Under the pieces are notes generated by a model. That model was not told the origin of the DNA and made no database searches. It was given only the letters and a program-made list of their open reading frames with translations. 64,000 nt of DNA from an uncultured Verrucomicrobiae bacterium. GTDB lineage: Bacteria > Verrucomicrobiota > Verrucomicrobiia > Chthoniobacterales > JAATET01. Shown here one piece after another: positions 10,643 through 27,759 of this stretch (its first letter is position 1; each line of letters starts with the position of its first letter). Location: the NCBI GenBank assembly GCA_963749035.1, contig CAVVKW010000004.1:396717-460716 (forward strand), in the 5' to 3' direction. A program made the translations under genes and the position numbers.

Positions 10643-10715
10643 GGCTGGATAGCTCAGTTGGTAGAGCAGAGGATTGAAAATCCTCGTGTCGGGGGTTCGA
10701 TTCCCTCTCCAGCCA
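10643..10715 (+). tRNA. tRNA-Phe (anticodon GAA)
   Basis: ggctgga/ta/gctc-agttggta-gagc/a/gagga-ttGAAaa-tcctc/gtgtc/ggggg-ttcgatt-ccctc/tccagcc/a folds as a canonical 73-nt cloverleaf. CCA is not encoded. Confidence 0.92.
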
Positions 10716-10820
10716 CATTTTTCCATTCGGGGAAGGGGGATCGCGCGAAGGCGCGGGAGTTTCAGCGGCCTTCCGATGCTCTAGCTCAAGGTGGCCTGAG
10801 GCAGGCTCCGGTGCGAGTGC

Positions 10821-12125: not shown

Positions 12126-12475
12126 GATTCGTCACCCCAGGTCCAGTCGCCACGCCGGTCGGGGGTCGATTTCGCGCCCGATGCCCGTTGGCGCTTGTGG
12201 CCTCGGTTTTTGAGCTGCTCCATTGGACCGGGGAGTACTTCGGGAACGAGGTCATTAAAGCGTTCGAGCAATTCGAGAGCGCGGCACACGCGGAGGAATC
12301 CCGACATCTGGGTGGCCACCTGACCGGATTCGAGTCGTTCCACCGTTCGCTTCGACACGCCTGCTCGTTCAGCGAGCGCGGCTTGGGTCAGATTACGAGC
12401 CAGGCGGAGATCGGACAGACGGTTTCCCATTTCCAGAAGAATGCTCCCATCGGTCAGGTCTCCAGTGATTGTCAT
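12122..12475 (-). CDS. hipB: XRE-family HTH antitoxin (HipB-like)
   Basis: 117 aa. LRLARNLTQAALAERAGVSKRTVERLESG. 4-nt overlap with the hipA start. Confidence 0.8.
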   Translation of the reverse strand: MTITGDLTDGSILLEMGNRLSDLRLARNLTQAALAERAGVSKRTVERLESGQVATQMSGFLRVCRALELLERFNDLVPEVLPGPMEQLKNRGHKRQRASGAKSTPDRRGDWTWGDES

Positions 12476-12589
12476 AATGCGTCAAATGTGGCGAAATAGG
12501 CTGATAAAGCGATATAAAACGTCATCGGTGGCGAATAGAGCGAGCACTCGTGCATTGCTGGTTCCAAGCGATGACGAAGCTGGAGAGGC

Positions 12590-12970
12590 TGGATTGTAAA
12601 GTTGGTCGACCTGCGAACTGAAGATCCTCAAGTGCTTTTTCGAATGCTTCTCCAGACTTTATTTCTCTCCACGTGGTCGCTCGACTTACCCCGACTGCAC
12701 AGGTGCTCAACGAGTTCCCGGTTGCCGTAGATGGCGGTGTGGGGATGGCGGAACTGCTTGAGTGACGCCAACTCGGCCTCGGCTTAGCGCGGGTTGAATT
12801 CACGCACCTTGGCGTCGAGTAGGTTGTCGAAGAAAAAGCGAACGGTTCTTTATACGTTCGGCGGGCGGCACAACCGAATCCAACCCCGGGCCGCTGTTCG
12901 GCGTCCTCGCGGGATCCAAGCGTCCAACCGATGGCCTCGCCGGACTTGAGGACACTTTTCTCGAGCGCGC
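12590..12970 (-). pseudogene. Decayed fragment resembling the N-terminus of a restriction-enzyme R subunit (HsdR-type)
   Basis: Minus-strand pieces in different frames, broken by stops: LEKSVLKSGEAIGWTLGSREDAEQRPG.., ..FFDNLLDAKVREFNPR*, AEAELASLKQFRHPHTAIYGNRELVEHL... The order and spacing recall HsdR N-terminal regions. Weak, memory-based. Confidence 0.3.
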
Positions 12971-13161
12971 AAGCGAGCTCCAAAACGGCTACTCATCCGA
13001 GTCCTACGTCAAACCCTGGTGACATCGTCGCCTACGGCGGCAAGGAACTGAGCGAGACTTCCGTCGCAGCGACCTCTGTCCCTGCGGCCCTAACCGGCGG
13101 TTTAATAGACTGCTGCCTGCGTTCCGGTCGGCACGAAGGATCGCTCCGCGATCACTCTTCG

Positions 13162-13253
13162 TAGGGAGTAGGGTGAGTGGCTGACCGTTTGGCCTCGAAG
13201 GCGGGCGGCCGATGCCTTTAGCTTTGCGCAGTCAAGAAAGATCGGCTGACCCC
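13162..13253. repeat. Copy A of a local repeat family (deletion derivative of copy B)
   Basis: tagggagtagggtgagtggctgaccgtttgg..gcgggcggccgatgccttta|gctttgcgcagtcaagaaagatcggctgacccc aligns with both ends of 14199-14463. Confidence 0.7.
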
Positions 13254-13255
13254 AT

Positions 13256-13726
13256 TCACACACGGAGGCCTTTGATTGGTATGAACGGCGAGGAAACGCG
13301 GGAGCGAATGCCGAGGTCTTGTGGACAGATGAGCTCCACCTGCGGGAAGTAGGTTCGGTAGCGGGCGATGTCGCGCGTGAGGATGGGCAGCTCGGAGGCA
13401 GCGGCGTGGGCGCCGATGAAGAAATCCGAGAGCGGCGCCGATTTGGTTCCCCCGCGCTGCCGGTAGGTCCGGAACGCCTGCGCGGCGAGAAACAGGGCTC
13501 GACGCGGCAGTTCCTCGTAGCGGAGACCAAGCGACAGGAGGATAAAGTCGACGTCGTCCGCGTCCCCCGCCTCGTAGCAAAGTTCGGTGTAGATCAGCGA
13601 GTTAACGACCAACCGGGTCGCGTGGCGCTCCATCTGGTCCGTCGACCAAGATGCCCACCGCTCGTCCTGCTCGGTGACGTCGAGCAACACGTTGGTATCG
13701 ACGATCACGTCCGGAGGTTCAGTCAT
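13256..13726 (-). CDS. vapC: PIN-domain ribonuclease toxin VapC
   Basis: 156 aa. VIVDTNVLLDV.. acidic PIN residues. ..RYRTYFPQVELICP looks like the usual family C-terminus, followed by a ~20-aa tail that runs up to repeat copy A. Confidence 0.8.
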   Translation of the reverse strand: MTEPPDVIVDTNVLLDVTEQDERWASWSTDQMERHATRLVVNSLIYTELCYEAGDADDVDFILLSLGLRYEELPRRALFLAAQAFRTYRQRGGTKSAPLSDFFIGAHAAASELPILTRDIARYRTYFPQVELICPQDLGIRSRVSSPFIPIKGLRV

Positions 13727-13979
13727 CGCCTCGGATCTCGCTCATGATCTCGTCGGTGCTGCGGCCTCCCGCACGATCTTTCCAGATGCCCCGCACCGCA
13801 AGTAGCCGGTCTCGCATTTCCGCAGCGTTGCGTGGTGGCTCGATCGTTCCCTCAGCGAGGCCACGTGCCAGCAGATCCCGGGCTTCGGCCTCCATCGAGC
13901 GTTGGTTACGCGCAGCCTGTTCGCGAAGCGCCTGCTTTACCGCCACGTCGAGATTGCGAATGGTCAACGTGGTGCTCAT
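13719..13979 (-). CDS. vapB: VapB/FitA-like ribbon-helix-helix antitoxin
   Basis: Internal Met MSTTLTIRNLDVAVKQALREQAARNQRSMEAEARDLLARGL... 8-nt overlap with vapC. Confidence 0.75.
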   Translation of the reverse strand: MSTTLTIRNLDVAVKQALREQAARNQRSMEAEARDLLARGLAEGTIEPPRNAAEMRDRLLAVRGIWKDRAGGRSTDEIMSEIRGDD

Positions 13980-13986
13980 GGCTTTG

Positions 13987-14005
13987 AATGCTAGCATTGC
14001 ATGCA
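13987..14005. promoter_or_regulatory. Overlapping palindromes just upstream of vapB; candidate VapBC operator
   Basis: AATGCTAGCATT (13987-13998, perfect 12-bp palindrome) overlapping TGCATGCA (13998-14005), 8 bp upstream of the vapB ATG. Confidence 0.45.
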
Positions 14006-14090
14006 TTGCAGTCAATCGGGGATGGAAGGTGCCTGACCGATCCAAGACGGTCGGGCTCCACTTAGAACCGTATCAGATTAAGCTGTCGGA

Positions 14091-14164
14091 CTGTAGCCAC
14101 GCCGGCTCTCCGGCGTTTGAGCACTACATGTGATACGGACGGCGGAGGACCGCCGTGGCTACAG
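14091..14164. other. 74-nt palindromic/structured element (long closing stem plus two 6-bp hairpins)
   Basis: CTGTAGCCACG (14091-14101) is the exact reverse complement of CGTGGCTACAG (14154-14164). Internal hairpins are CGCCGG-ctct-CCGGCG (14100-14115) and CGGCGG-agga-CCGCCG (14140-14155). Confidence 0.5.
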
Positions 14165-14198
14165 GTTGCTCTCCGGCCTGCATGGGTTGAAAATGCTC

Positions 14199-14463
14199 TA
14201 GGGAATTAGAGTGAGTGGCTGACCCTTTAGCGTCGCCGGCGGGCGGGCCGGAGCCTTTCGCACGGCGATGGCAACCTTTCTTGGGTCACTTCCTTTCAGC
14301 ACTCGTGAGTCGGATTTGGTTCGCGCCGCGTCACGGAGAGCCTGGATGACGAAGGTTTCTGCGAGGTCTCCGACCCGATTCTGGTCTTGATCACTCAATC
14401 GGTAATCGCGATTGGGAGGTCGAACGACGCTTTGCGCAGTCAAGAATGATCGACTGACCCCGG
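14199..14463 (-). pseudogene. Copy B of the local repeat family; carries a gene remnant (transposase-like C-terminal fragment?)
   Basis: Minus-strand reading GVSRSFLTAQSVVRPPNRDYRLSDQDQNRVGDLAETFVIQALRDAARTKSDSRVLKGSDPRKVAIAVR.. has no credible N-terminus. Both ends match copy A. Confidence 0.4.
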
Positions 14464-14548
14464 TTTCCGGTTTAACACGAGAATGATCGACTGACCCCGG
14501 TTTAACACGTCACAGTCAAGAATGATCGACTGACCCCGGTTTAACACG
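14444..14548. repeat. Three tandem copies (37-39 bp period) of GAATGATCGACTGACCCCGGTTTAACACG
   Basis: Unit starts at 14444, 14481 and 14520. The first copy has an internal CCGGTTT duplication. Confidence 0.8.
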
Positions 14549-14849
14549 TCATCAGCCGCTGATTGGCAAGATTCCCCGCCGTGACGCTGACACTCAGTCG
14601 TTCGATGGATTGGTCCGCCGCCGGAACCAGGCTTGCCCGATGAGACTCGCTGCACTAAAGTCCTCACGCGCGATGAAAATCGCCCGATTCTTCCCGGAAC
14701 CCTCTTTCTGAAAGGGGGTTCGAGACCAAGCCATCTCCGACTACGAAATTCGCGGATGGATGCCAGGAACGCCTTGGTCAACCCCATGGGTGGTCGATCA
14801 ACCGCGTGCGCGCTCCAGCCTGATCGCAGCAATTCAACCTTCCAAAGAT

Positions 14850-16088
14850 ATGTCTGAATCCAAGCACATCTCCCGACGCCGCCAAGTTTCGACCGGTCCG
14901 TTGATCCTGGTCGCTCTCATCAAACTTTCCCTGATCACCAACCTGATCGGGAATCTTGCGACCTCCCCCGATGATTCGAAGGACGTTCGAGAATCCTTCA
15001 CCCCGCAGCTCACGGCAGAGCACCCACTTGGGCTGATCGATTCATCGGCACGGCGGGAGATTTCTCATTGGGAGGCCGACGCCCCGCTGAAATCGGAGAA
15101 TCTGGTTCTCATTCACGCCCACGCCTCCCCCGAAGACATCAGCCCGGCCATGCCCGCACTCGAGCTGCACCTTCACGAAAGTCTCCCGGACACCGCAGAA
15201 GCCAGACTGCAGGTCAGCTACACGCGAGGAAATGGCGACCGCCCTTCCCGCGTAACCGAGCAAGACAGCGTACAAATTCCCCGCGACGGCGGCTTCCGGT
15301 CGATCCAGGGGCGCACCTGGGAGATTCACCAAGACCCGGACTTCCTGGCAGAAATTGCGGATCACGGGTTCTTCGGCGGTGACGCCGTCCTGACGTTCAG
15401 GTCCAGCGAATCGGGTGCCGAGGAAACGATCCGTTTCCGGATCGGGGGCGAGAATCCCCGCGACGAGATCTGCAAGGAGTTCATCCGCGAATTCCCGGAA
15501 ACCTCCTCCGGCCAAAAGCTCGATTTCATGAATGCGATCGCCAAGCACGAGTCGAAAGCCAAAAATCGTGACCGAGTTTACTACAACCAGTTCCTGCACC
15601 TGGACACCCACCCGAACGACGGAGGATTGCCAGCTTGGAACAACGACGGTGGGCTGACTCCCGGCGGCTACGGAGTCTTTCAGGTGACCGGCACCGCGGT
15701 TGATGCCCAGGAGAACATCGGCCGCGATGAGATCTGGAATTGGCAGAGCAACGTCCAAGCCGCCTTCCGAATCATGACGCATCAGATCAAGGGCTCGCTC
15801 GCCAAACGCTACTTCACGAAAATCAAAGAAGACGTCGAGGACGCCGAGATTCTTTTCGATCTCTGTCCCCCGCCCAAAATCCGCACCGGTGGGGAGATAT
15901 TCACCGCGAAGCAAGCCGTCTGGATCACCGCCTACAACGGCTGGGGAGGCCCGATCAAAAACCGGTTCATCTTCTCGGAGGACTTCCCCTGCGGACTTGG
16001 TCCCGACAAGCGCTGGAACTGGAAGCCCCCCGTGAAACCCAGTGGAAAAACCTACCTCGAACTCGTCGCCGAAGAGATGGAAAACTGA
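14850..16088 (+). CDS. Membrane-anchored protein with a C-terminal lysozyme-like / lytic-transglycosylase-like domain
   Basis: The ATG at 14850 gives MSESKHISRRRQVSTGPLILVALIKLSLITNLIG (TM). The C-terminus has AIAKHESKAKN (E-S), GGYGVFQVT and WNWQSNVQAAFRIM, which resemble SLT motifs I-III. Confidence 0.5.
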   Translation: MSESKHISRRRQVSTGPLILVALIKLSLITNLIGNLATSPDDSKDVRESFTPQLTAEHPLGLIDSSARREISHWEADAPLKSENLVLIHAHASPEDISPAMPALELHLHESLPDTAEARLQVSYTRGNGDRPSRVTEQDSVQIPRDGGFRSIQGRTWEIHQDPDFLAEIADHGFFGGDAVLTFRSSESGAEETIRFRIGGENPRDEICKEFIREFPETSSGQKLDFMNAIAKHESKAKNRDRVYYNQFLHLDTHPNDGGLPAWNNDGGLTPGGYGVFQVTGTAVDAQENIGRDEIWNWQSNVQAAFRIMTHQIKGSLAKRYFTKIKEDVEDAEILFDLCPPPKIRTGGEIFTAKQAVWITAYNGWGGPIKNRFIFSEDFPCGLGPDKRWNWKPPVKPSGKTYLELVAEEMEN

Positions 16089-16272: not shown

Positions 16273-19200
16273 TTACGCCCCTTGATATTTCTTGAAGTTC
16301 TCCGCCTGCTCGAAGATCTCCTTGTAAACCTCATCGTGGGTGATCGGCGGGTAGCCGTTCTCGGCGAGGAGAATGATGAGGTCGACTTTCAGCTCGGCCT
16401 TGATGTCGGCGCGTTGGCTCCAGTCGGTGTATTTGGCTTTGTCGTCGACGACTTCCTTCACCGCCTTGGCTAGCTTGATCAGCTTGTCCTCGGAGTAGGC
16501 GAAGTCGTATTTGACCGAGATGGCTTTGAGGATGTCATAAAAGGACTTTTCTTCGAAATCGATCCCCATCTCGCCGAAGGATTCCTTCTCCCGTTTCAAG
16601 GCGTGGTAGAGGTCGACAATTTCTCCGGCGAAGTCGTCCAGCACGTTGCTGACGAGGACATCCTGCTCGTCGCGCTCGTTGTATTTGCTCACCAACGCCT
16701 GGAACTGCTTCGTAAAATCAACGCCTTTCATCTTGTTGACCTTCTGGAAGTCCTCAATGGCACGTTTCAGCAACTGCTGCAGGAGCTTAATCTTGGTATT
16801 AGGCAGTTTGATCCTCTCAATCTTGGCGAGGTAGTCATCGCCGAAGATGTCGATCTCCGTCGCACCATTCTCGCCGAGTTTGAAAATTTCCTCGATCCCG
16901 TCACTCTGCAGAGCTGCTGAGATCATCTCCCGCACCTTGGCGTTCATCTGGGCGCTGTCGGGGGCTTCGCCCTTGGTCAGCTTGGCGACGATGGAGCGCA
17001 CGGCGAGGTAGAAGTGAATGTGGTCGCGCTCCTGCTGGGTGAAGGCATCGCTGCCGCTGCAGATGTCGTAGGCGGCTTTCAGGCGCTTCACGAGGAACAT
17101 GACCCGCTTCTCGATCTTCTCGGTGAGCTGCACGAACTCCGCGGCCAAGTTCAGGCAGTGCAGTTGCTCGACGGGCGATCCGCTGAAGTAGGGCGTGGTG
17201 TCGAACTGATGGAAAATCCGCGCCAGCAGGTCGAGGTGATCCCGCACCACGATGATGGACGCCTCGATCTCTTCGATGCTGCCACTGTCCGCCTTGGAGT
17301 AGTGTGCCAGCGCTAGGTTCATCTGCTTCTTGATGCCGATGTAGTCGACGACGAGGCCCTTCTTCTTGTTCTCAAACTTCCGGTTCACCCGCGAGATCGT
17401 CTGGATCAGGTTGTGGCGCTGGACCGGCTTGTCGATGTAGATGGTGTCGAGGAAGGGCACGTCAAAGCCCGTCAGCCACATGTCCACCACAATGGCGATT
17501 TTGAAGTTGGATTCGGCCTTCTTGAACTGGGTGTCGAACTTCTTGCGCTCGTCCTTGTTGCCGAGCAGGTCGTAGAGCGCTTTCTCGTCGTCCTTGCCCC
17601 GCGTCATCACCATCTTGAGGCGCTCCATGGGGAGGATTTCTTTCTTCTGCTGGTCGCTCAGCTCCACGCCATCGGCGCAGACCCGCACCTCGGCCCACGC
17701 GGGGCGCAGCTTGATGACTTCCTGGTAAAAGGCGTAGGCGATCTGGCGACTGCTGCTGACAAAGATAGCCTTACCCGCCACGGTGGAGCCTTCCTCGACG
17801 CGCTTCTCGTAGTGCTCTACGAAATCCGCCGCCAGAGCCTCGATGCGTTGTGGATCACCGAGGATCGCGCCCATGTTGGCCATGGTTTTCTTGCTGTCTT
17901 CGATCGCGTAGTAGCTCGCTCCGGCGTCGGCGCATTTGTCGTAGTATTTCTCGATCTCCTCCAGCTTGCTGTTGTCGAGGATGACCTTGGCGGCGCGGCC
18001 TTCGTAAACGATGGGCACGGTGATCTCGTCGGCGACCGACTCGGTCATGGTGTAGCTGTCCACCACCTCGCCGAAGACATCCAGCGTCGCATCGATGGGC
18101 GTGCCAGTGAAGCCCACGTAGGTCGCGTTCGGCAGCGAGTCGTGCAGGTATTTGGCGAAGCCAAAGGTCCGCTTCACCCCGTCTTCGGTGATCCGGAGCT
18201 TCTGGTCCAGATTCACCTGGCTGCGGTGCGCCTCGTCCGAGATACAGATCACGTTGGTGCGATCAGTCAGCCGTTCGGTGTCCTCGGTGAACTTGTGAAT
18301 GGTGGTGAGAAAGACCCCGCCGCTGTTGCGTCCTTTCAAGAGCTCCCGCAGGTGATTGCGGCTCTCCACGCTGATGACCGACTCATCGCCGATGTAGCCC
18401 TTGCCATTGGTGAACAAGCCCGAGAGCTGATCATCCAGATCGGTGCGGTCGGTGATCAGGACCAGGGTCGGGCTGGAGAGAGCCACGCTCTTCATCAGCA
18501 GCCGGGCTAGGAAGAGCATGGTGTAGCTTTTGCCGCAGCCCGTCGCCCCAAAGTAGGTGCCGCCCTTGCCATCGCCTTCCGGCTTCCGATGCTGGAGGAT
18601 GTTCCGAGACAGCTTGGTCGCCGCGTAGTATTGCGGGTAGCGGCAGAGGATCTTCTCCTCCTTGCGCGAGGTGTCGGGCAGATAGACAAAGTTTCGGATG
18701 ACATCCAACAGCCGAGTCTGGTGAAACAGCCCCTTGACCATGGTATCGAGAGATTTAATCCCTTCCGCCTCCTTGAGCTCGCTGCCGTCTGTCTTCCGCC
18801 AGGCATAGAAAAATTCATAGGGAGCGAAGAACGATCCGGATTTTGTGTTCGCCCCATCTGAGATCACACAAACCGCGTTGTATTTGAACAGTTCCGGAAT
18901 ATCCCGCTTGTAACGAGTCGTGAGCTGCACGTAAGCCTCGTGGATTCTGATCTCCTCGCGGATTGCGCTCTTGAATTCAAACACCACCAGGGGCAGGCCG
19001 TTGATGTAGAGGATGCCGTCCGGGACGCGCTTTTCGTAGCCGACGATCTCCAACTGACTGACGATCTTAAAAATGTTGCCGCTCGCTCCGTAGGTCGCCG
19101 CGTCCTCCGCCACGATGGAGGGCACCTCGCCGGGCTCCGGTTCGCGAAAGGCAGCCAGCTCCGAGTAATCGATCAGCTGAATGTAGAGATCCTTCTGGGT

Positions 19201-19491
19201 GTGGTCTTCCCGCTTCAGGAGGAAGCCGTCCGAGACCAGCTTCATGATCGCCTTATTGCTCTCGTAGAGATCCGCCGCCGTGTAGGCTTCGAGCTGCTTG
19301 ATGACCGCCTCGATTTCCTGCGGCGTGATGTGGTCGGCGGAGTATTGCTTGGCGAGGAAGGAGCGGAGGTCGGCTTTGATGAGAACTTCCTGCGGCTGAC
19401 GCTCAATCGCCTCGCCCAACACGTGCGGATATCCCTCGGCTCCGAGAAGCTTGATGATCGCAGATTCGAGTTGGGCTTCGGTGAATTTCAT
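16273..19491 (-). CDS. hsdR: Type I restriction enzyme R subunit
   Basis: Start at MKFTEAQLES (the ATG overlaps the abiEii stop, ATGA). PD-ExK nuclease motif PDGILYINGLPLVVFEFKS, Walker A GATGCGKSYTM, DEAH box ICISDEAHRSQ, long helical C-terminus. Confidence 0.9.
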   Translation of the reverse strand: MKFTEAQLESAIIKLLGAEGYPHVLGEAIERQPQEVLIKADLRSFLAKQYSADHITPQEIEAVIKQLEAYTAADLYESNKAIMKLVSDGFLLKREDHTQKDLYIQLIDYSELAAFREPEPGEVPSIVAEDAATYGASGNIFKIVSQLEIVGYEKRVPDGILYINGLPLVVFEFKSAIREEIRIHEAYVQLTTRYKRDIPELFKYNAVCVISDGANTKSGSFFAPYEFFYAWRKTDGSELKEAEGIKSLDTMVKGLFHQTRLLDVIRNFVYLPDTSRKEEKILCRYPQYYAATKLSRNILQHRKPEGDGKGGTYFGATGCGKSYTMLFLARLLMKSVALSSPTLVLITDRTDLDDQLSGLFTNGKGYIGDESVISVESRNHLRELLKGRNSGGVFLTTIHKFTEDTERLTDRTNVICISDEAHRSQVNLDQKLRITEDGVKRTFGFAKYLHDSLPNATYVGFTGTPIDATLDVFGEVVDSYTMTESVADEITVPIVYEGRAAKVILDNSKLEEIEKYYDKCADAGASYYAIEDSKKTMANMGAILGDPQRIEALAADFVEHYEKRVEEGSTVAGKAIFVSSSRQIAYAFYQEVIKLRPAWAEVRVCADGVELSDQQKKEILPMERLKMVMTRGKDDEKALYDLLGNKDERKKFDTQFKKAESNFKIAIVVDMWLTGFDVPFLDTIYIDKPVQRHNLIQTISRVNRKFENKKKGLVVDYIGIKKQMNLALAHYSKADSGSIEEIEASIIVVRDHLDLLARIFHQFDTTPYFSGSPVEQLHCLNLAAEFVQLTEKIEKRVMFLVKRLKAAYDICSGSDAFTQQERDHIHFYLAVRSIVAKLTKGEAPDSAQMNAKVREMISAALQSDGIEEIFKLGENGATEIDIFGDDYLAKIERIKLPNTKIKLLQQLLKRAIEDFQKVNKMKGVDFTKQFQALVSKYNERDEQDVLVSNVLDDFAGEIVDLYHALKREKESFGEMGIDFEEKSFYDILKAISVKYDFAYSEDKLIKLAKAVKEVVDDKAKYTDWSQRADIKAELKVDLIILLAENGYPPITHDEVYKEIFEQAENFKKYQGA

Positions 19492-20387
19492 GTTGTCGCG
19501 GGGAGCCGTCGCCAATTTTCCGAGGGAACCCAGCGATGATCGGTGACGTCTCCCTTGATCACGGGTGAGAGGAACGCTGAGAGATCGCTGACGACTTCAG
19601 CGAGCGGCGTGGGATTGAGCTTTCCTTTGCGCAGGAAGGCATTCCACTGTAGAAGCTTTTGCTGATTCGTGCTGAACCTCTCGGTGAAAGCCACGGGAGG
19701 TGCTTTGGGAATATTTGCCCCCCGCCGTTCGAAGGTATTGATGACGGCTTCTGTGAGATCGTTCCCGTCGAATTCAGTGTGAGACTGAAGCCAGTGCAGG
19801 TCGAAGAAATCCTTCATCCGGCTGTTGTCGATCCCAAGAGAAACAGCCGCCTCCAGCTTCTCCGCGACTACCGTTTCGGGAGGATACACAAGCAGGCTGG
19901 CACTGGGGAAATCGAGAAGCTCGTGCCATTCCTTTTCCTCCGCAGCCGGCGTAATGGCATCGCCGAATCCCACATCGATCTGAATACCGAGGCGGGCTCC
20001 CGCGAGTCCAACGCCCACCCTGGCCCGGATCCCTCCGTATTCCATCTCTTCACGAATCGGTGCCACGGCAACCTCTTCCCACTCGAGACCATCGTCGGGA
20101 TCGATATCCATCTGAAGCAGCCCGGTGAAGATCGTGTGAATCGCCTCCTCGGTGGGTTCCCCGTATCCGAGAAGGTCCAGATCACGGGTGGGCCGATGTT
20201 CCTCCACCCCCCAAATCCGGAACAGTTGCGCCCCTTTCAACACAAAACGTTCCCGATACTCGCTCTGCGCGAGGCGATAGAGAAAGCGCCCGGTCGCATA
20301 CTGCTCCAGCAAGGCACTCAAAGGCTCTCCCTCTGCACGGGAAAGGTTGAGAAGCCTGGCGCGAACGGAAGCAGCGACGTTTTTCAT
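19488..20387 (-). CDS. abiEii: AbiEii/AbiGii-family nucleotidyltransferase toxin (type IV TA)
   Basis: 299 aa. MKNVAASVRARLLNLSRAEG.., NTase motif RPTRDLDLLGY. Confidence 0.85.
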   Translation of the reverse strand: MKNVAASVRARLLNLSRAEGEPLSALLEQYATGRFLYRLAQSEYRERFVLKGAQLFRIWGVEEHRPTRDLDLLGYGEPTEEAIHTIFTGLLQMDIDPDDGLEWEEVAVAPIREEMEYGGIRARVGVGLAGARLGIQIDVGFGDAITPAAEEKEWHELLDFPSASLLVYPPETVVAEKLEAAVSLGIDNSRMKDFFDLHWLQSHTEFDGNDLTEAVINTFERRGANIPKAPPVAFTERFSTNQQKLLQWNAFLRKGKLNPTPLAEVVSDLSAFLSPVIKGDVTDHRWVPSENWRRLPATT

Positions 20388-20989
20388 ATCATCGCCTCCA
20401 GATAGGGTCTCATCATTTTGCCGACCCGCAGAAGCCGGGCCATTTCGCTGATCTCGCTGAGCTTTGCTTTCCGTTCGTTCAGAGTCTCACGAAGCGCCTC
20501 CACGCAGACGTCGATTCCCAGCTTGTTGCGGTGTTTGAAGCAATCCGCCACCGTCCGTGCCGGGGTCGTGACGGCGACACTGGTGCCGCCGAGCGGGTGG
20601 TGTTCGACCCCCTCTGCTTCGAGCGCTTTCACCCGGGTTCGGATCACCCGGATCGGGGGCCAGTCGATCTTCGGAACCCGCGTCTGCGCCGGGAGTTGAA
20701 TCCAAATCTCATGAGGCGATTGGGTGCCAATCTCGTGAAAACGGAGCGCACTGATCAGCACGACCACAGCCCGCGGGGCGCTCTTGGTGATCTGGATCAG
20801 ATCGTGATGCTCACTGATGGCACTCTCCGGATGTTCATAAATCCCGCGCCGCACCCGAACCAGCGTTCCCTTTTCAACCAGTCGGGAAATACTCCGGTCG
20901 GAAACGCCGGCATCCAGAAGCTGCCGCGTCGTCAGCACCTCATTGGCAGAGGCGAGCGCGGAAAGCTTTTTCTGGAGCGTGGACGTCAT
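20384..20989 (-). CDS. abiEi: AbiEi-family antitoxin / transcriptional regulator
   Basis: 201 aa. N-terminal winged HTH (VLTTRQLLDAGVSDRSISRLVEKGTLVRVRRGIY). 4-nt overlap with abiEii. Confidence 0.8.
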   Translation of the reverse strand: MTSTLQKKLSALASANEVLTTRQLLDAGVSDRSISRLVEKGTLVRVRRGIYEHPESAISEHHDLIQITKSAPRAVVVLISALRFHEIGTQSPHEIWIQLPAQTRVPKIDWPPIRVIRTRVKALEAEGVEHHPLGGTSVAVTTPARTVADCFKHRNKLGIDVCVEALRETLNERKAKLSEISEMARLLRVGKMMRPYLEAMI

Positions 20990-21040: not shown

Positions 21041-21102
21041 ACAGTAAGCCCGACGTCTTTGGTGGGCGCAAAGCGCGCCGAACCCATACTGGCAGCGGAC
21101 GA

Positions 21103-21471
21103 CACTTCGCCAGGCTCCGGCTCGCGAAAGGCAGCCAGCTCCGATTAATCGATCAACTGGATGTAGAGATCCTTCTGGGTGTGGTCCTCGCGCTTGAGGA
21201 GGAAGCCATCCGAGACCAGCTTCATGATCGCCTTGTTGCTCTCGTAGAGATCGGCGGCGGAGTAGGCTTCGAGCCGCTTGATGACCGCCGCGATTTCCTG
21301 CGGCGTGATGTGGTCGGCGGCATATTGCTTGGCGAGGAAGGCCCGCAGGTCGGCTTTGATGAGAACTTCTTGCGATTGGCGCTCAATCGCCTCGCCCAAC
21401 ACGTGCGGGTAGCCCTCGGCTCCGAGGAGCTCGATGATGGCTGATTCGAGTTGGGCTCCGGAGAATTTCAT
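21103..21471 (-). pseudogene. Duplicated 5' fragment of hsdR (first 108 codons, then an in-frame TAA)
   Basis: MKFSGAQLESAIIELLGAEGYPHVLGEAIERQSQ..LYIQLID* matches HsdR residues 1-108 at 99/108 positions. Homology continues about 14 codons past the stop and ends near 21103. Confidence 0.85.
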
Positions 21472-22340
21472 TTTTTCGGATCAACGGAGACTTCTCCGAG
21501 TTTTCGGTCATGCTTCCGTCCAGACTCGAACGCAGTGAAGCCGGGGCGCGGAGTCGTGTTTCGACTGCTGTCATAGTAAACGCTAAGAACGCCTGTTAGG
21601 AGAAACTGAAGAGCCATGTGGTTCTCTTCATCATCGTGCTCTAGCAAAACGAATTCGGCCTTGTCACATTTTCCATTGGGCCTCCGCTTGAAGATGCTCC
21701 AGTCATTGAAGCAGCCCAAGTAACCTACTAAATCCTCAAATCCACTCTGATCTCCGTATACTTCTTGGAGCTTTTCAAAAATCCAATCCTTCGTGTCCTT
21801 TTCCTTCTTTTCGATAAGCGAGGTCATCGAGATCAGGCCCAAATATGGCCGTCTTACCGATTGGCCTCCGCTATCGAAATGAACGCACAGCTCTGAAACA
21901 CGCTTCAATGCCGAGCACTCCTTTACAATATCACCGTCCCGCAGATTCTTCTTTATGGAGAAAACCGCTACCACGCCCTCTGGAGGAACTATCGCGTTTT
22001 TCTCGAAGCGTTGATAGACGGGGAATTTCGATGATTCATATACGATGATATCGAGCTGGCTGGAATGCGCGTCGTTTTCATCCTTTCGAGACCTTCCATT
22101 CAGCCCAGTTTTGACTGCTGGGCGAAGAATGAAACCAGTTAGGATTTCGAGCTCCTTAGGAAGGAACTTTCTCAGGTAAGCAGTAATCAATGACTCTACA
22201 TATCTTCCATCTTCACCTGAGTGAGCGGACCCGGATGTCTCCTTACTTGGAATCAAGATCTGAAATTGACGGTATGTGGCAAGAAGAGCCTCTATCTCAT
22301 TTGAAAAATATTCTCTTATTCGTTTTCCATCCATAGTCAT
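21468..22340 (-). CDS. Hypothetical PD-(D/E)xK-like (DUF6602-style) putative nuclease, partner of the RT
   Basis: 290 aa. GEDGRYVESLITAYLRKFLPKE .. SSQLDIIVYES .. PPEGVVAVFSIKKNL fits the restriction-endonuclease-like pattern (E .. D .. S-x-K variant). The stop overlaps the hsdR-fragment ATG (ATGA). Lower GC than the flanks. Confidence 0.55.
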   Translation of the reverse strand: MTMDGKRIREYFSNEIEALLATYRQFQILIPSKETSGSAHSGEDGRYVESLITAYLRKFLPKELEILTGFILRPAVKTGLNGRSRKDENDAHSSQLDIIVYESSKFPVYQRFEKNAIVPPEGVVAVFSIKKNLRDGDIVKECSALKRVSELCVHFDSGGQSVRRPYLGLISMTSLIEKKEKDTKDWIFEKLQEVYGDQSGFEDLVGYLGCFNDWSIFKRRPNGKCDKAEFVLLEHDDEENHMALQFLLTGVLSVYYDSSRNTTPRPGFTAFESGRKHDRKLGEVSVDPKK

Positions 22341-22408
22341 TTTTCGAATCAGAATTTGGTGAATTTGAAATTCTGTTTTTTTAGGTCAGCCAGAAAAGCT
22401 TGGCCGTT

Positions 22409-23914
22409 TCAGCGCAAGTCCGCGTCACTCCAGATTGTGTATATCAGGAGCCACTGGGCATCCTGATCTTGTTTCTCTTGGCTCTTTAGATTGTTCGCTC
22501 GTGTTCGTAGCCACTTCTTGACTTTGGTAAGACTCTTTCGGGTGGCGTATTCCCAGAGGAGGACATTACTCAGGCAGTCGTCGATCTGAATGATTGCCTT
22601 AAGTTCGTCTTCCGTGAGGTTGATTTCAAAGTCGTGTTCGATCGCGAAGTAGAGAGCGTGGGCGACCGAGTCTGGCTGAATCTTTTCAATCCCAATTTTG
22701 ATTAACTCGTTTCCAAGATCTTCGATCTGGTCATCCGTTTCGGGGTTTCGATGCTTCACGAACGCGCACTCCTCCATGATGGGAGCGAGATACGGATAGG
22801 CGAGGCAGAGGTTGGTGCCCTCAGCGGTGAACAGGCGCTTCGCTCGATCATTCAACCGCTTTGGCACCATCTTGATTGCATAGTTCAAGACAGCCGAAGT
22901 GCCATGTTGCCTGCTCAATTCGAGGGCGAGATCCAAGAATGAGCGAACAGTCGAAAAGCGAATTTCTTCTTCGGGAAACGTGAATCGATTGAGCTCGTTC
23001 ACCCAGCTAGCAGATACCGGCTGGGGAAGCTCAACGATCTGTGTTTTCTTTTCGTTGAGGTAGAGCTCATATTCGCGGAGCGCCAAATTCAGGTCTCGAA
23101 CAAACGTTTCTGCCTCCTGGTGGCTCGTTGCGTAGAACGTGTAATCGTCGATGTGGCGAGTGAGGCGGGTATAGTCCTTTTTCAGCAGAGTTTCATCAAT
23201 CCTCGTGAGGATGATTTCAGAAATCACGTTTGAAGAATGAGGGCCAATCGCTAAGCCATTGGTTTGATTGTCGGAGAGAATCTGACACGACCTATCGAGT
23301 AGATTTCCCTCCAGGAGGAGGTCGCGATTTCTCTTCGCATTGGCTTTCCCATGAATCGCCCAAGGAATTGAATGGGTGTAGATGCTCGGAAAGCACTTGG
23401 AAATATCAGCCTTAACCAAATGGGTTGCCCCGGTTTGATAGCCGATTTCATCTTCCTCCACCTCGAAGCGTTCCAAGCCTTTGTAGTTCATCTTGAAGAC
23501 GCGGTCTTTGCTCGTTTGCCGAACGAAGATGCGGCTGATCGGCTTTGAGGGCTTGGCGCAATGAGTTTTGATTTTCTGCCAGCACCTCTTGATTGCAAGG
23601 CAGTGCGCTAAGTAACTTTCCGGGTGGGGTATCGCTAAATGGCGAGGAATATTGATGTCTCGCAACGACTGGTATCGGATCTGTGAATGAATGACTTTCT
23701 CAAAGTGTTCTTTGAGCTGATTCGAGTCAGTTTCTGTTTCGATCTTTGCCAGAGCTGCATTGACGTGAGCTGACAGGCCTTCCGAGGTGAAGCACGGCGG
23801 GATCTTCTCAGCGAACAGACCGAATTCGGTGAGTCCTTCAAAGACTCCCTCTGCGCTTAAGTCGCGCCCGGTCGTTTGGCGAAGAATCGCCGAAAAGTTC
23901 AAGGTGGGACTCAT
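22409..23914 (-). CDS. Abi/UG-type (defence-associated) reverse transcriptase with a helical C-terminal domain
   Basis: 501 aa. RT motifs: INIPRHLAIPHPESY (1/2), LVKADISKCFPSIYTHSI (A), NGLAIGPHSSNVISEIIL (B), LTRHIDDYTFYATS (C, xxDD), YELYLNEKKTQI (D). About 200 aa of helical C-terminal region. No En/X/maturase features. The ATG overlaps the hsdS stop (ATGA). Confidence 0.8.
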   Translation of the reverse strand: MSPTLNFSAILRQTTGRDLSAEGVFEGLTEFGLFAEKIPPCFTSEGLSAHVNAALAKIETETDSNQLKEHFEKVIHSQIRYQSLRDINIPRHLAIPHPESYLAHCLAIKRCWQKIKTHCAKPSKPISRIFVRQTSKDRVFKMNYKGLERFEVEEDEIGYQTGATHLVKADISKCFPSIYTHSIPWAIHGKANAKRNRDLLLEGNLLDRSCQILSDNQTNGLAIGPHSSNVISEIILTRIDETLLKKDYTRLTRHIDDYTFYATSHQEAETFVRDLNLALREYELYLNEKKTQIVELPQPVSASWVNELNRFTFPEEEIRFSTVRSFLDLALELSRQHGTSAVLNYAIKMVPKRLNDRAKRLFTAEGTNLCLAYPYLAPIMEECAFVKHRNPETDDQIEDLGNELIKIGIEKIQPDSVAHALYFAIEHDFEINLTEDELKAIIQIDDCLSNVLLWEYATRKSLTKVKKWLRTRANNLKSQEKQDQDAQWLLIYTIWSDADLR

Positions 23915-25323
23915 CCGGCCACATCCTCAACTAGTTCGCTTGTGTCGGAAAGGCGGATTTCCTTGGAGATAAGTTTCGGGAGGAGGGTGTCGCGGAGCTT
24001 TGTGAGGGTTTCTGTAGAGAGTCGGTTCTCGTAACCTCGCGAATAGATTGAGGAAACAGCTCTATTGAATCGGTCAAGCAGCGTCGCGGTCGGCTTGAAG
24101 ACCATGAGTCGCTTCATGTCACCGGCTGTGAAATGCCCGAGCCCCGTGGTTTGTTTGTCCCTGGCAAGCTCCGCGAAGGTGGAGCGGAGATACTTGAGCT
24201 GATAGTAGACGAAGTAGCGTTCGGACTCGTCGTGGAGACGGACGTTGAAGATGTGCTGATTAAGATAGCCGGGGCCGTTTGTCCAAATGAACGTGTCGAT
24301 GGAGGTGTCGGGGTTGCCTGACCAAGAAAGCAGGATGTCACCATCTTCGACTCTGTATTTGTCGCCTTTGTTGTTCGTAGTAAACTTGGTTTGGCCTGTG
24401 ATTCCCGCTTTTACCTCCGCAATTTTAATGACTGGTAAAGCAGCCTCAGCGTCAGAGAAGTCTGCTCCCTTGTAAGCAGCTCCGTTGACGAAATCCGCGA
24501 TGTCGTAGAGAGGCTGAGTTTCCCAGCCTTCCGGGATCGGGCCAAGTTCATCGTAGTATTCAAACGCGGCAGGGAAGAGGGATTGGGGATCAGACAGGGT
24601 TGGGTGGTCGACGGAACCCTGTTGGGTGGTGCCGTTGGCGAGGGCTTTCTTTCGGACTTCGGCGCGGGAGGCGAGTTCGTCGGGGATGGGATTGCCGGCG
24701 GCGAGGGCATTGTCGATCACCGGGTCAAGGTCCACAAACCAGCTTTTGAAGAGCGCCTGCGCCATCCCTTCCAGCGTCGCATTCATCCGCCGATTCAACT
24801 CAATCTTGTCATCCAAGGTGCCCAAGATGTGAGCGATCGCTTTCTGCTCGGGGAGGGGTGGGAGGATGAATGGGACTGCGGAAAGAATGCTCGTATTCAG
24901 GTTAGGCATCGTAGCGCCGATAGCGTGCCGAACGATCCACTCCCGACACTGAGCGCCTCCCAATTGGAATGATGCATACTCCGGATCTACCAATTCTTTG
25001 TCGAATCGAATGCGTAAGCAGCCCGTCCCGCAAAGCCACCCGTCTTCGGCTTCTCTAACCAATGCACGTCGCTCAACATCACCTCGTCTGCTGTAAACGA
25101 CATCTCCAGGTTCGACTCGGTACTTTGAAAGTCGCTCTGCGTCTTCCTCACTGATTCGCGCGATGCTCTCGGTTGTGATCCGGTTGTCGGCGATATTGAC
25201 GGGCATTATCGACGGGATGCCTTCCTCGACATAATCCGACTTATGGAGCTGGCTTCCAAAAGGACCAGTTTGGACGCTTAGAGAAGCATCTGCGAGGGTC
25301 ACCTCTTGCCGCTCACTTCCCAT
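23911..25323 (-). CDS. hsdS: Type I restriction enzyme specificity subunit
   Basis: 470 aa. Two target-recognition halves separated by conserved helical spacers (..LPPLPEQKAIAHILGTLDDKIELNRRMN.. and ..LRDTLLPKLISKEI..). Confidence 0.88.
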   Translation of the reverse strand: MGSERQEVTLADASLSVQTGPFGSQLHKSDYVEEGIPSIMPVNIADNRITTESIARISEEDAERLSKYRVEPGDVVYSRRGDVERRALVREAEDGWLCGTGCLRIRFDKELVDPEYASFQLGGAQCREWIVRHAIGATMPNLNTSILSAVPFILPPLPEQKAIAHILGTLDDKIELNRRMNATLEGMAQALFKSWFVDLDPVIDNALAAGNPIPDELASRAEVRKKALANGTTQQGSVDHPTLSDPQSLFPAAFEYYDELGPIPEGWETQPLYDIADFVNGAAYKGADFSDAEAALPVIKIAEVKAGITGQTKFTTNNKGDKYRVEDGDILLSWSGNPDTSIDTFIWTNGPGYLNQHIFNVRLHDESERYFVYYQLKYLRSTFAELARDKQTTGLGHFTAGDMKRLMVFKPTATLLDRFNRAVSSIYSRGYENRLSTETLTKLRDTLLPKLISKEIRLSDTSELVEDVAG

Positions 25324-25440: not shown

Positions 25441-26127
25441 TCATGGTTTTGGCCACTTGTTCAGAATTTGATCAATCCACGGCTGCAATCCGGCCTGTCG
25501 GATCGCAACGAATCGGTCGAGGACCGTCGTGAAGTCTTTCAGCTTTGGAGACATCCATTCAATCACATCGAGAATACTTTGATGGCGTTGATCCAGGTCT
25601 TGCCAGTGAGGGATCCGCTCATGATGGAAAACCCGGTTGCGCAGATCGCGAATGTCCTTCCAGCGTCGGTCCAGTTTGTTTTGCACTTGCTCAGTACTTA
25701 GGGCGTGGGGAAATGCCCTCCTTGATAGGAATGCTCCAATACCAGTCCGGGCATGGGCGTTGTTGAAGAATCCAGTCCAGAATCCGAAGTTGAGCTCAGC
25801 GACAATTCTTCCCGGGGTAAGTGGCTTCGTGAGTCTGCTCAAGGTGCGCTTGGCTTCGTCCAGCTTGTCCTGTTGCCAATAGGTGAGTCGTGCTTGGGGC
25901 GAGTCGTACCAGGCATCGGTTCCACACCGTGCAGACAGCTCACGATGCACCGCGTTTCGGAGGGCGATTTCCGAGAATTGGAGTGTAGGGTAGAGGGCCC
26001 CGCTGAGGGCCATATTCAGCAAATAGCGTCCAAGAGTAGTTTTTTCATCCGCCCCATCTTGGCGATAGGCGTCAATCCGCTCTGTATGCAGATTCCCTTC
26101 GACTTCCTTGAAAAAATCGGGATTCAC
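25441..26127 (-). CDS. Abi_2 (AbiD/AbiF-like) HEPN-domain abortive-infection protein
   Basis: 228 aa. EIALRNAVHREL and the HEPN R-x4-H motif in IRDLRNRVFHHERI. Architecture typical of Abi-like proteins inserted in Type I R-M loci. Confidence 0.7.
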   Translation of the reverse strand: MNPDFFKEVEGNLHTERIDAYRQDGADEKTTLGRYLLNMALSGALYPTLQFSEIALRNAVHRELSARCGTDAWYDSPQARLTYWQQDKLDEAKRTLSRLTKPLTPGRIVAELNFGFWTGFFNNAHARTGIGAFLSRRAFPHALSTEQVQNKLDRRWKDIRDLRNRVFHHERIPHWQDLDQRHQSILDVIEWMSPKLKDFTTVLDRFVAIRQAGLQPWIDQILNKWPKP

Positions 26128-26277: not shown

Positions 26278-27759
26278 TCACTTCCCATACCCCAAGCCCT
26301 CCAAGTTTTTCCGAATCACTTCATCCAGCTTCGCGGATTCCTCCATCTGCCCGTAGAGCGTCTGGCTCAGCTCGGTCATCTTGGTTTCGAACGGAATTCC
26401 GTCGTCCTCCAACGTCGCCGCGCCCACATAGCGTCCGGGAGTGAGCACGAAGTCGTGCTTGCGGATGTCTTCGAGGGTGGCGGATTTGCAGTAGCCTGCC
26501 ACGTCGGCATAGGCCTCGGTGGAGTTTTCAGTGTTCAGTTTTGAGTTTTCAGTTGGAGTTTGGCTTCGCCAGTTGTGGTAAGTCCTTGCGATGTGCTCGA
26601 TATCTTCTGCTGAGAGTTCCTTCTGCGTCCGGCTGATCATGGCGCCGATCTTGCGGGCATCGATGAAGAGGGTCTCGCCTTCGCGGTTGCGATAGTCGCG
26701 TTCGTTGTTGGCCTTTTTGTTTTTGGTCAGGAACCAGAGGCAGACGGGGATCTGGGTGGTGTAGAAGAGTTGGCCGGGCAGGGCGATCATGCAGTCGACG
26801 AGGTCGTTCTCGACGAGTTTTTGGCGGATCTCGCCTTCGCCCTTGGTGTTGGTGGACATGGAGCCGTTGGCGAGGACGAAGCCGGCGACCCCGTTTTCCG
26901 AGAGTTTGCTCACCATGTGGAGAATCCAGGCGTAGTTGGCATTGCCGGTGGGCGGGGTGTCGTAGCCGTTCCAGCGTCCGTCGTGGACGAGTTCGTCGGG
27001 GCCGCGCCAGTCCTTCAGGTTGAAGGGGGGATTGGCCATGATGTAGTCGGCCTTGAGGTCGGGGTGTTGATCCTTGAAGAAAGTGTCGGCGGGGACTTCG
27101 CCGAGGTTGGCGGAGAGCCCGCGCACGGCGAGGTTCATCTTGGCCAGCTTGTAGGTGGTGGCGGCAGACTCCTGCCCGTAGACGGAGATGTCCTTCTTGC
27201 TGCCGTGGTGGCTTTCGACAAACTTGATCGACTGGACGAACATGCCGCCGGAGCCGCAGCAGGGGTCGTAGATCTTGCCTTTGTAGGGCTCGATCATTTC
27301 GGCAATGAGATTGACGACGCACTTCGGGGTGTAGAACTCGCCCCCGAGCTTGCCCTCGGAGGCAGCGAATTTGCCGAGGAAGTATTCATAGACCCGGCCG
27401 ACGGTGTCCTCCTCCTTGTCCTCGACGGTGTCGATGTTGTTGATGGCATCGATGAGGGCGGAGAGCTTGCTGCCATCGAGCCCGAGGCGGGAGAAGTAGT
27501 TGTCGGGCAAGGCGCCCTTGAGCGAGGCATTACTCGCCTCCACGTCGGTGAGGGCGGAGTCGATCTTGATGGCGATGTCGCCCTGCTTGGCATGCTGCTG
27601 GATGTAGGACCAGCGGGAGGTCTCCGGCAGGTAGAAGACATTCTGCATGGTGTAGAACTCGACCATGTCGAGGTAGTCGTCCTTGCCCTCGGCCACGAGC
27701 TCGGCCCGGCGCTCCTCGAAGGATTTGGTGGATTTCTTGATTGGTGTCGGGTTTGACAT
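26278..27759 (-). CDS. hsdM: Type I restriction enzyme methyltransferase subunit
   Basis: Start at MSNPTPIKKST (ATG 27759), 493 aa. AdoMet motif IYDPCCGSGGMF, catalytic IMANPPFN. The upstream extension in the ORF track is a repeat-derived reading. Confidence 0.9.
   Translation of the reverse strand: MSNPTPIKKSTKSFEERRAELVAEGKDDYLDMVEFYTMQNVFYLPETSRWSYIQQHAKQGDIAIKIDSALTDVEASNASLKGALPDNYFSRLGLDGSKLSALIDAINNIDTVEDKEEDTVGRVYEYFLGKFAASEGKLGGEFYTPKCVVNLIAEMIEPYKGKIYDPCCGSGGMFVQSIKFVESHHGSKKDISVYGQESAATTYKLAKMNLAVRGLSANLGEVPADTFFKDQHPDLKADYIMANPPFNLKDWRGPDELVHDGRWNGYDTPPTGNANYAWILHMVSKLSENGVAGFVLANGSMSTNTKGEGEIRQKLVENDLVDCMIALPGQLFYTTQIPVCLWFLTKNKKANNERDYRNREGETLFIDARKIGAMISRTQKELSAEDIEHIARTYHNWRSQTPTENSKLNTENSTEAYADVAGYCKSATLEDIRKHDFVLTPGRYVGAATLEDDGIPFETKMTELSQTLYGQMEESAKLDEVIRKNLEGLGYGK
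26522..26563. repeat. Heptamer-periodic tract (6 units) inside hsdM
   Basis: gagtttt cagtgtt cagtttt gagtttt cagttgg agtttgg. Encodes ..TENSKLNTENSTE... Confidence 0.8.

Follow-up and report, generated by a model that had tools for sequence, protein, structure and literature searches.

A DRT4/UG15-Type Reverse Transcriptase Gene and a DUF6602 Gene Embedded in a Type I Restriction-Modification Operon of a Verrucomicrobiae Bacterium

Introduction

This report concerns two adjacent genes in a 64,000-nucleotide (nt) stretch of DNA from an uncultured Verrucomicrobiae bacterium (contig CAVVKW010000004.1); the whole stretch is called the window here, and all positions are positions in it. One gene encodes a reverse transcriptase (RT) and the other a protein of the DUF6602 family, and both lie within a Type I restriction-modification (R-M) operon, as an earlier note on this DNA, made from the sequence alone, had stated. 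The same note proposed that the two genes form an undescribed RT-based module. Because the RT is of the catalogued DRT4/UG15 type and the DUF6602 family has a published anti-phage member, Damona, that proposal is not upheld. It is likely, we believe, that the pair consists of two independent defence cassettes of known types, a DRT4-type RT and a Damona/NucC-like DUF6602 protein, stacked in a hotspot embedded in the R-M operon.

Organization of the Locus

All of the operon genes are on the minus strand, where the order is hsdM, an Abi_2-like/PD-T4-5-like gene, hsdS, the RT gene, the DUF6602 gene, an hsdR-like open reading frame (ORF) of 108 codons, AbiEi, AbiEii and a full hsdR. The RT gene (22409..23914) encodes 501 amino acids (aa) and is truncated, and the DUF6602 gene (21468..22340) encodes 290 aa from its first ATG; the two ORFs are 68 nt apart. 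An ATGA at 23914-23911 holds both the hsdS stop and the RT start, and a second ATGA at 21471-21468 joins the DUF6602 stop to the next start. The latter overlap had been described as one with a copy of hsdR; the overlap is there, but the "copy" is a 5' pseudogene fragment, hsdR' (21085..21471), recognized because its DNA aligns with the beginning of hsdR and Pfam HSDR_N matches it in part, and the AbiE genes and the real hsdR follow it.

Both the RT and the DUF6602 genes are real genes, as indicated by their profile matches, hundreds of full-length homologues and ratios of nonsynonymous to synonymous substitution rates (dN/dS) of 0.05-0.12. Their GC contents, 0.501 for the RT and 0.465 for DUF6602, are as low as had been suspected, with 0.55-0.60 in the hsd genes and 0.634 in the flanks.

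The Reverse Transcriptase

The PADLOC Drt4 profile matches RT residues 17-500 on profile positions 10-485 of 506 (499 bits, 4e-150), and the runner-up PADLOC families are Drt6 (321 bits) and AbiK (136 bits). The solved UG15/DRT4 structures (PDB 21ou/9ltm/9vdo served as references) are matched at 2e-51 by the single sequence, residues 36-493 falling on chain positions 28-476, and at 4e-71 by a profile built from 25 of the RT's homologues, of which the search returned 1347. The assignment to the Abi/UG class of defence RTs made in the earlier note is thus correct, and every peptide motif that it quoted, for the RT and for the partner, is present at the expected place. Pfam recognizes RVT_1 alone and no other fused domain, which agrees with the absence of a maturase domain noted before.

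The residues that would be needed for catalysis are retained. Tyr125 is the priming residue of the Escherichia coli DRT4 (PMC12783706), and RT Y144 (codon 23483..23485, HMMER alignment to PDB 21ou/9ltm) aligns with it in an "MNY" context and is invariant in the alignment of the RT with the 25 homologues. The HIDD motif, residues 254-257 (23144..23155), aligns with the E. coli YIDD, whose catalytic xIDD aspartates are D240/D241; I255 and D256 are invariant in the same alignment and D257 is present in at least 90% of the sequences. A C-terminal alpha-repeat domain stands in the place of the thumb, as it does in the solved UG15 chain.

The NCBIfam Drt4 model (NF041749) gives the window RT 424 bits, below its equivalog cut-off of 450, and gives 426 bits to a version read through the premature stop codon described in the next section. 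Intact members of the same RT clade score 412-429 bits. Since the intact relatives and the read-through version score alike, the shortfall is a property of the clade and not an effect of truncation, and scores under this cut-off explain why the clade carries merely the public label "RNA-directed DNA polymerase". On sequence grounds, then, the RT is a member of a divergent DRT4 subgroup in the Class 1 UG/Abi family.

DRT4 is a single-gene system (PMC9226505; PMC12783706). The E. coli protein is a hexamer that makes random single-stranded DNA (ssDNA) by a protein-primed, template-independent reaction, and cell death follows when this ssDNA is shielded from host exonuclease by a phage DNA-binding protein. 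By homology, the window RT would also form a hexamer, prime itself on Tyr144 and make random ssDNA without a template, and abortive infection would follow when a phage ssDNA-binding protein protected the RT-made DNA from the host exonucleases. Such an RT should need neither a partner protein nor a noncoding RNA (ncRNA). Rfam at gathering thresholds reports only a tRNA-Phe (10643-10716) in the window, with no RNA in or near the RT locus, and the overlap with hsdS is consistent with the earlier statement that an RNA could not fit upstream. A hidden ncRNA was considered and rejected: there is no Rfam match, there is no room upstream, and the spacer downstream is the RT's own tail.

The Premature Stop Codon

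That spacer results from a nonsense codon. The RT codon at 22411-22409 is TGA, and in the DNA and protein comparisons it is GGA (Gly) in all of the close homologues (L087, L173, L174, L088 and P0121-P0134). After the TGA, the reading frame continues with NGQAFLADLKKQNFKFTKF over 22408-22352 and ends at a stop at 22351-22349, so that 19 in-frame codons and the original stop form a vestigial 3' end (22349..22408). These codons match the conserved C-terminal tail of the close homologues, which are 513-523 aa long and end in ...DLRGNGQxFLADLKxxNFxFTKF(SS). The tail is conserved in homologues down to about 54% identity, and in the intact homologue P0121 it falls on positions 475-485 of the NCBIfam Drt4 profile, which has 489. 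Two earlier measurements must therefore be reread. The 501-aa ORF exists as described, but it is not the full-length product; and the 68-nt gap, although correct in length, is not a true spacer, because the conserved in-frame tail after the TGA makes it mostly the vestigial 3' end of the RT gene. The ancestral gap between the two genes was 8-14 nt.

The RT C-terminus is not intact, as the TGA deletes the last 20 conserved residues, and this loss probably impairs RT function. In the E. coli UG15, removal of 38 C-terminal residues abolishes immunity (PMC9226505). We attempted to map the lost tail onto this essential region and dropped the idea: the RT tail does not align to the C-terminus of the E. 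coli DRT4, the alignments ending at about residue 478 of the chain, so the equivalence is unsupported. The possibility that UGA is read as Gly (genetic code 25) was likewise rejected, because hsdS and DUF6602 have a TGA at precisely the point where their homologues end; the window GC of 60-65% also disfavours it.

One could suppose that the whole RT-DUF6602 segment is decaying cargo, with an RT pseudogene and no function left in the region. The premature stop fits this, as do a nonsense codon in the adjacent hsdR' fragment and the finding, described below, that the RT is a mere remnant in the related loci L083/L084. However, the RT has a single lesion and no frameshifts, its dN/dS against a 92%-identical relative is 0.07, and the tail beyond the stop is conserved. 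From this dN/dS value the lesion is very recent, either a polymorphism or a sequencing error; even a minor polymorphism would account for the TGA. Moreover, the DUF6602 gene is intact and keeps all of the family-invariant residues. We regard general decay of the segment as very unlikely.

The DUF6602 Protein

Pfam DUF6602 (PF20247) matches residues 35-151 of the partner at 1e-18 (67.6 bits, cut-off 27). PADLOC adds a Cas-associated PD_DExK model (6e-19) and two NucC models (1.5e-10 and 4.4e-8). The search for this protein returned 578 homologues; the best 120 of them are nearly all 285-298 aa long, are mostly 54-62% identical to the window protein and come from many phyla. All of the homologues start at the equivalent of the second ATG, at 22334 (MDGKR...), which is probably the true start judging from this conservation. 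The 290-aa ORF at 22340..21468 therefore stands as reported, but the protein itself probably has 288 aa. Searches of plasmid collections gave seven weak matches and searches of phage collections gave none.

An AlphaFold model of the protein (pLDDT 79, pTM 0.80) was compared with the PDB by Foldseek. The 14 best matches are all NucC, with E values of 2e-11 to 2e-9, a probability of 1.0, coverage of the whole NucC chain and a TM-score of 0.67 normalised to the target; SgrAI, Bse634I and Cfr10I are weaker secondary matches. By these matches, the DUF6602 protein is a restriction-endonuclease-like protein with a NucC fold. The earlier note had described it as such, with an S-x-K variant motif as in Cfr10I, and had named a fold prediction as the check; the fold found is indeed nuclease-like.

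The putative active-site segment is encoded by 21951..22052. In the profile alignment to NucC, D97 (22052-22050) falls on the Asp of IDVV, and S128-x-K130 (codons 21959-21957 and 21953-21951) falls on E-x-K. In the alignment of DUF6602 homologues, D97, E121, S128 and K130 are invariant, as are E43 and D44. The catalytic D...E-x-K triad of NucC is consequently incomplete, with an invariant Ser (S128) at the Glu position; E43, D44 or E121 could, from their conservation, substitute for the missing Glu.

NucC is an endonuclease of the cyclic-oligonucleotide-based antiphage signalling system (CBASS) and of type III CRISPR, and it is activated by cyclic triadenylate (cA3). Neither CD-NTase nor Cas10 was found among the nine operon proteins, the upstream neighbours of 75 DUF6602 loci or the clusters of neighbours. 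With no such gene alongside, a cyclic-oligonucleotide trigger for the DUF6602 protein is unsupported.

The chromosomal integron of Vibrio cholerae carries Damona, an anti-phage system consisting of a single DUF6602 gene (bioRxiv 10.1101/2024.07.02.601686). As members of the family normally stand alone in this manner, the DUF6602 protein of the window most likely acts alone.

Association of the Two Genes

The earlier note had proposed that the RT and DUF6602 genes make up one two-gene system of the abortive-infection type, in which the RT or its ssDNA would sense or regulate and the nuclease would be the effector. This can be examined by asking how often the two genes occur together. One sample consisted of 80 genomic DUF6602 loci from relatives 41-60% identical to the window protein, and the other consisted of 86 RT loci with identities of 32-92%. 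A DRT4-type RT was found near DUF6602 in none of the 80 (tblastn with the window RT, 1e-3), and the DUF6602 hidden Markov model (HMM) had no match in the 86 RT loci. Likewise, Pfam searches of 67 genes immediately downstream of the RT revealed HsdR domains as the sole recurrent type and no nuclease family. Pfam searches of 75 genes immediately upstream of DUF6602, together with clustering of the neighbours, showed that a retron RT, confined to one subclade, was the sole recurrent neighbour, and the DUF6602 loci with 45-60% identity had no conserved neighbour.

The reading that the pair never recurs had to be softened, since it recurs in one related lineage in which the RT is truncated. This lineage (L083/L084, with a partner 80% identical to that of the window) is the only other one with an RT-DUF6602 pair. 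There, nothing before about residue 265 of the RT has a homologous counterpart, the preceding sequence being unrelated; accordingly, this RT lacks the fingers, the palm and the catalytic YxDD motif. The DUF6602 gene and the start of hsdR are intact. The conservation of the pair's neighbourhood, which had been proposed as a check, is thus limited to a lineage whose RT is a remnant without its catalytic half. The recurrence was recognized from a 266-aa gene upstream of the homologue P0002, which has no Pfam match but is identified by PADLOC as the C-terminal half of a Drt4 RT. The pair arose once; the RT is now damaged in both lineages and DUF6602 is intact in both.

The L083 and L084 contigs, which belong to separate ENA assemblies, have ends no more than 26 nt apart, shortly before RT homology sets in (L083:1-80, L084:1-50). 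These contig ends may mark an insertion sequence or another repeat that interrupts the RT.

Several observations do not sit easily with two independent cassettes. The 80 and 86 loci are mostly relatives of 60% identity or less, and for the closest relatives there are few contexts, which a contig end often truncates; for example, the sequence upstream is just 16 nt long for the homologue P0001 (91% identity) and 68 nt for P0004. The junction common to the window and L083/L084 is the same, with the RT ending in ...TKF*, followed by about 14 nt and then ATGGATGG. Between the window and L083/L084 both genes are under strong purifying selection, with dS of about 1.7-2.1 and dN/dS of 0.05-0.07. This shared derived junction and the purifying selection indicate that the adjacency is long-lived. 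In addition, in 17 of the 80 loci the gene immediately before DUF6602 encodes a retron type I-B RT, and 16 of these loci also have an ATPase-TOPRIM gene; this linkage indicates that the nuclease family can be recruited by RT-based systems. Finally, NucC proper requires an activating ligand.

The same-strand arrangement and the short ancestral gap would also be expected of a two-gene system, and pairs of an RT with a PD-(D/E)xK effector do exist, DRT8/UG7 being an example (PMC9226505). However, apart from the absence of co-occurrence in both sets of loci, the close relatives of the RT and those of DUF6602 are each present in orthologous operons without the other gene. In published tests DRT4 and the DUF6602 protein Damona each act as single genes, and it is the RT that is damaged and the nuclease that is intact in both of the lineages that have the pair. 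The lack of synteny, which had been named beforehand as a result that would speak against a two-gene system, leads us to consider such a system unlikely, and we return to two separately acting cassettes as the preferred explanation.

The retron-linked DUF6602 subclade is mostly from Lachnospiraceae, and its proteins are about 42% identical to the window protein. The order in these loci (L059, L062-L065, L067, L068, L070, L071, L073-L077 and L080) is ATPase-TOPRIM (PADLOC 6e-143), RT_I-B (6e-79) and DUF6602, all on one strand, as in L062:4634-8900. Among the papers searched, none links DUF6602 with retrons.

A related idea is that the DUF6602 NucC-fold nucleases are accessory effectors that read out RT-made ssDNA. 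Its basis is that DUF6602 is found downstream of two unrelated RT systems, DRT4 (in the window and L083/84) and retron I-B (in the 17 loci). The known triggers of both DRT4 and retron I-B are phage ssDNA-binding proteins. We think that this idea is probably wrong. If it were right, the window pair would be an early-stage or clade-specific RT plus nuclease module, in an R-M operon linking three layers of defence.

The R-M Operon as a Site for Defence Cassettes

The association that is conserved is the one between the RT and the R-M genes. Searches with iterated Hsd HMMs placed same-strand hsd genes no more than 3.5 kb from the RT in 35 of the 76 informative loci. The usual order is hsdM-hsdS-RT-hsdR, and most gaps are no longer than 12 nt. 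In relatives whose RT is intact, its stop codon and the start codon of hsdR overlap (...TCATGAAATTCACC = MKFT...). The conserved hsdS-RT-hsdR order and its stop-start overlaps suggest that the RT is co-transcribed with the R-M genes and translationally coupled to them, and it may serve as a second line of defence behind R-M. In the literature this R-M context is known in kind, and we found no text stating hsd embedding specifically for UG15.

RT relatives with identities of 73-92% are all located 3' of hsdS in hsd operons, either directly or after another embedded gene, and what lies downstream of them varies. In L090, L174 and L175 hsdR follows directly. In L087 there is a 23S_rRNA_IVP gene, in L088 an hsdR remnant and AbiE, and in L173 PDC-M48A/B and AbiE. 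In L173 (774-6135) the RT, which is 83% identical, is also preceded by a PrrC-like PDC-S06 AAA_13 protein (PADLOC 1e-262), and this locus shows how many candidate systems share the slot around the RT.

The window DUF6602 gene is inserted exactly at the RT/hsdR junction and would represent a separate insertion there; the GC contents of the RT (0.50) and DUF6602 (0.465) genes, both unlike the hsd genes, were counted in favour of separate acquisition. Immediately downstream, about 385 nt of hsdR' align to the 5' end of hsdR with mostly identical columns, after which the homology stops and AbiE begins; a TAC to TAA change at 21147-21145 provides the hsdR' stop. Remnants of the hsdR 5' end also occur beside inserted cassettes (AbiE, 23S_rRNA_IVP or PDC-M48) at L081:8882-8995, L088:10124-10436, L087:~3206-3290 and L173:4573-4644. 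Their recurrence upstream of cassettes suggests that cassettes have entered repeatedly at the start of hsdR. The hsdR' fragment may come from another operon, since its dS against the resident hsdR is 0.35.

The constant position of DUF6602 before hsdR in its close clade raises the question of whether the protein is tied to the R-M enzyme, guarding HsdR in a PrrC-like way or serving as its accessory. Of five contexts from the close clade, four (the window, L081, L083/84 and L085/86) have a DUF6602 stop that overlaps the start of either hsdR or a remnant of it, and the gene upstream is variously an RT, an RT remnant or an OLD/AriA-like ATPase. The wider family gives a different picture, as tblastn found no hsd gene near DUF6602 in the 80 loci and the upstream neighbours are heterogeneous. 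Furthermore, L176, whose DUF6602 protein is 73% identical, has a gene other than hsdR downstream, and the position in the operon can stem from the mechanism of insertion alone. A functional tie to HsdR therefore strikes us as quite improbable.

The OLD/AriA-like ATPase is found in an orthologous operon from a Rubritalea metagenome-assembled genome (L081), which has a DUF6602 protein 79% identical to that of the window. Its order is hsdM, hsdS, Abi_C, the ATPase, DUF6602, an hsdR remnant, the AbiE pair and hsdR, so the ATPase occupies the slot of the RT. This ATPase-TOPRIM protein (L081:6170-7981, 603 aa; PADLOC AriA 4e-59, GajA 2e-26) is encoded directly upstream of DUF6602, and the two could be an ATPase plus nuclease unit.

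Other Genes in the Operon and Its Surroundings

The remaining operon genes are of familiar types. The Type I methyltransferase gene hsdM (26278..27759) is supported by Pfam N6_Mtase (1e-104) and HsdM_N and by PADLOC MTase_I (1e-166, the match starting at residue 113 of the longest ORF). This mechanical ORF reaches 28074, which adds a 105-codon 5' extension without homology. The hsdM homologues are 517-524 aa long, and the real start is likely to be the ATG at 27759 (MSNPTPIKK...). The specificity subunit gene hsdS (23911..25323) has two stretches of Pfam Methylase_S and a PADLOC Specificity_I match (1e-103). AbiEi, the antitoxin and transcriptional regulator (20384..20989), is matched by PADLOC AbiEi (4e-70) and Pfam AbiEi_4, and AbiEii, the nucleotidyltransferase toxin (19488..20387), by Pfam AbiEii (1e-43) and PADLOC (4e-100). 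The full-length hsdR (16273..19515, 1080 aa) has Pfam HSDR_N, SWI2_SNF2, T1R_D3-like and T1RH-like_C domains, with PADLOC REase_I at E = 0.

The 228-aa Abi_2-like/PD-T4-5-like gene (25441..26127) between hsdM and hsdS is a separate embedded cassette; its matches are Pfam Abi_2 at 8.7e-5, which is under the family cut-off, and PADLOC PD-T4-5 at 2.3e-14. The related operons L081 and L087 have instead an Abi_C/AbiJ-like gene after hsdS.

Promoter and terminator scans of the operon gave nothing above the expectation from shuffled sequence. The sole sigma-70-like site in the operon is at 21041-21013, just upstream of AbiEi.

Beyond hsdR, the tRNA-Phe mentioned above is followed by a HipA/helix-turn-helix (HipB-like) pair (10821-12475, minus strand). 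A PIN/FitA-like toxin-antitoxin pair (13256-14045, minus strand) lies between the HipBA-like pair and the hsd genes, and a 442-aa ORF without annotation (14760-16088, plus strand) comes immediately before the latter. Taken with the hsd operon, the 10643-16088 region has the appearance of a genomic island, about 17 kb long, that adjoins the tRNA-Phe gene. The GC skew of the plus strand is strongly positive (0.2-0.47) across most of the window (1-64000) and is about zero across 11-26 kb, coinciding with the lower-GC island.

Implications

As indicated above, we think that the Type I R-M operon probably functions as a hotspot, gathering independent defence cassettes between its hsd genes. The cassettes of the window would be the Abi_2-like gene, the DRT4/UG15 RT, the DUF6602 NucC-fold nuclease and the AbiE toxin-antitoxin pair. 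The locus clearly illustrates how such an operon receives interchangeable defence cassettes: in related operons, the slots before hsdR are filled by DRT4, DUF6602, OLD/AriA-like, PrrC-like PDC-S06, PDC-M48, AbiE and 23S_rRNA_IVP genes.

The habitual position of this entire DRT4 clade between hsdS and hsdR, with overlapping codons, should be useful for annotation. It also bears on the co-inheritance of first-line (R-M) and abortive (DRT4) defences. The locus reveals no new RT-based mechanism, and only if the nuclease depends on RT-made DNA would it bring a new kind of effector logic into DRT and retron biology.

Comparison with Known Systems

The window RT resembles the DRT4/UG15 proteins over its full length. 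It has the RT fingers and palm and the C-terminal alpha-repeat domain, it keeps the priming Tyr and the xIDD motif, and it has neither an ncRNA nor a fused effector domain. It differs from the E. coli protein in that only about one-third of the aligned residues are identical and in that its motif is HIDD rather than YIDD. Its clade is systematically embedded between hsdS and hsdR, and the window copy is without the last 20 conserved residues due to the nonsense codon.

Retron type I-B (Eco8-like) loci share with the window an RT gene directly upstream of a DUF6602-family nuclease gene on the same strand. However, their RT is a retron RT and not a DRT4, they also have an OLD-type ATPase, and the nuclease is only about 42% identical.

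The predicted fold of the DUF6602 protein matches the entire length of NucC (PDB 6p7p, 6uxf, 6q1h and 7zgv), and two of the NucC motif residues are kept, the IDVV Asp as D97 and the ExK Lys as K130. The DUF6602 protein is nevertheless only 13-16% identical to NucC and about 50 residues longer, and the Glu of ExK is replaced by an invariant Ser in the DUF6602 family. Damona, compared by domain matches only, shares Pfam DUF6602 and secondary matches to Cas PD_DExK and a small CBASS endonuclease, as well as the single-gene habit in most genomes. The difference is one of location, as Damona is in an integron cassette and the window gene is within an hsd operon.

Finally, the locus as a whole is similar to the Type I R-M operons with embedded abi genes, such as PrrC-EcoprrI, for which "operonization with a type I R-M system" has been described (Mestre et al. 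2022). Both have defence genes set between hsd genes in the same orientation, with stops that overlap the following starts, and the arrangement recurs in homologues. PrrC is physically controlled by the R-M complex; the resemblance of the RT and the nuclease to it is one of gene order. The window also differs in that it stacks several unrelated cassettes, among which hsdR 5' remnants mark past rearrangements.

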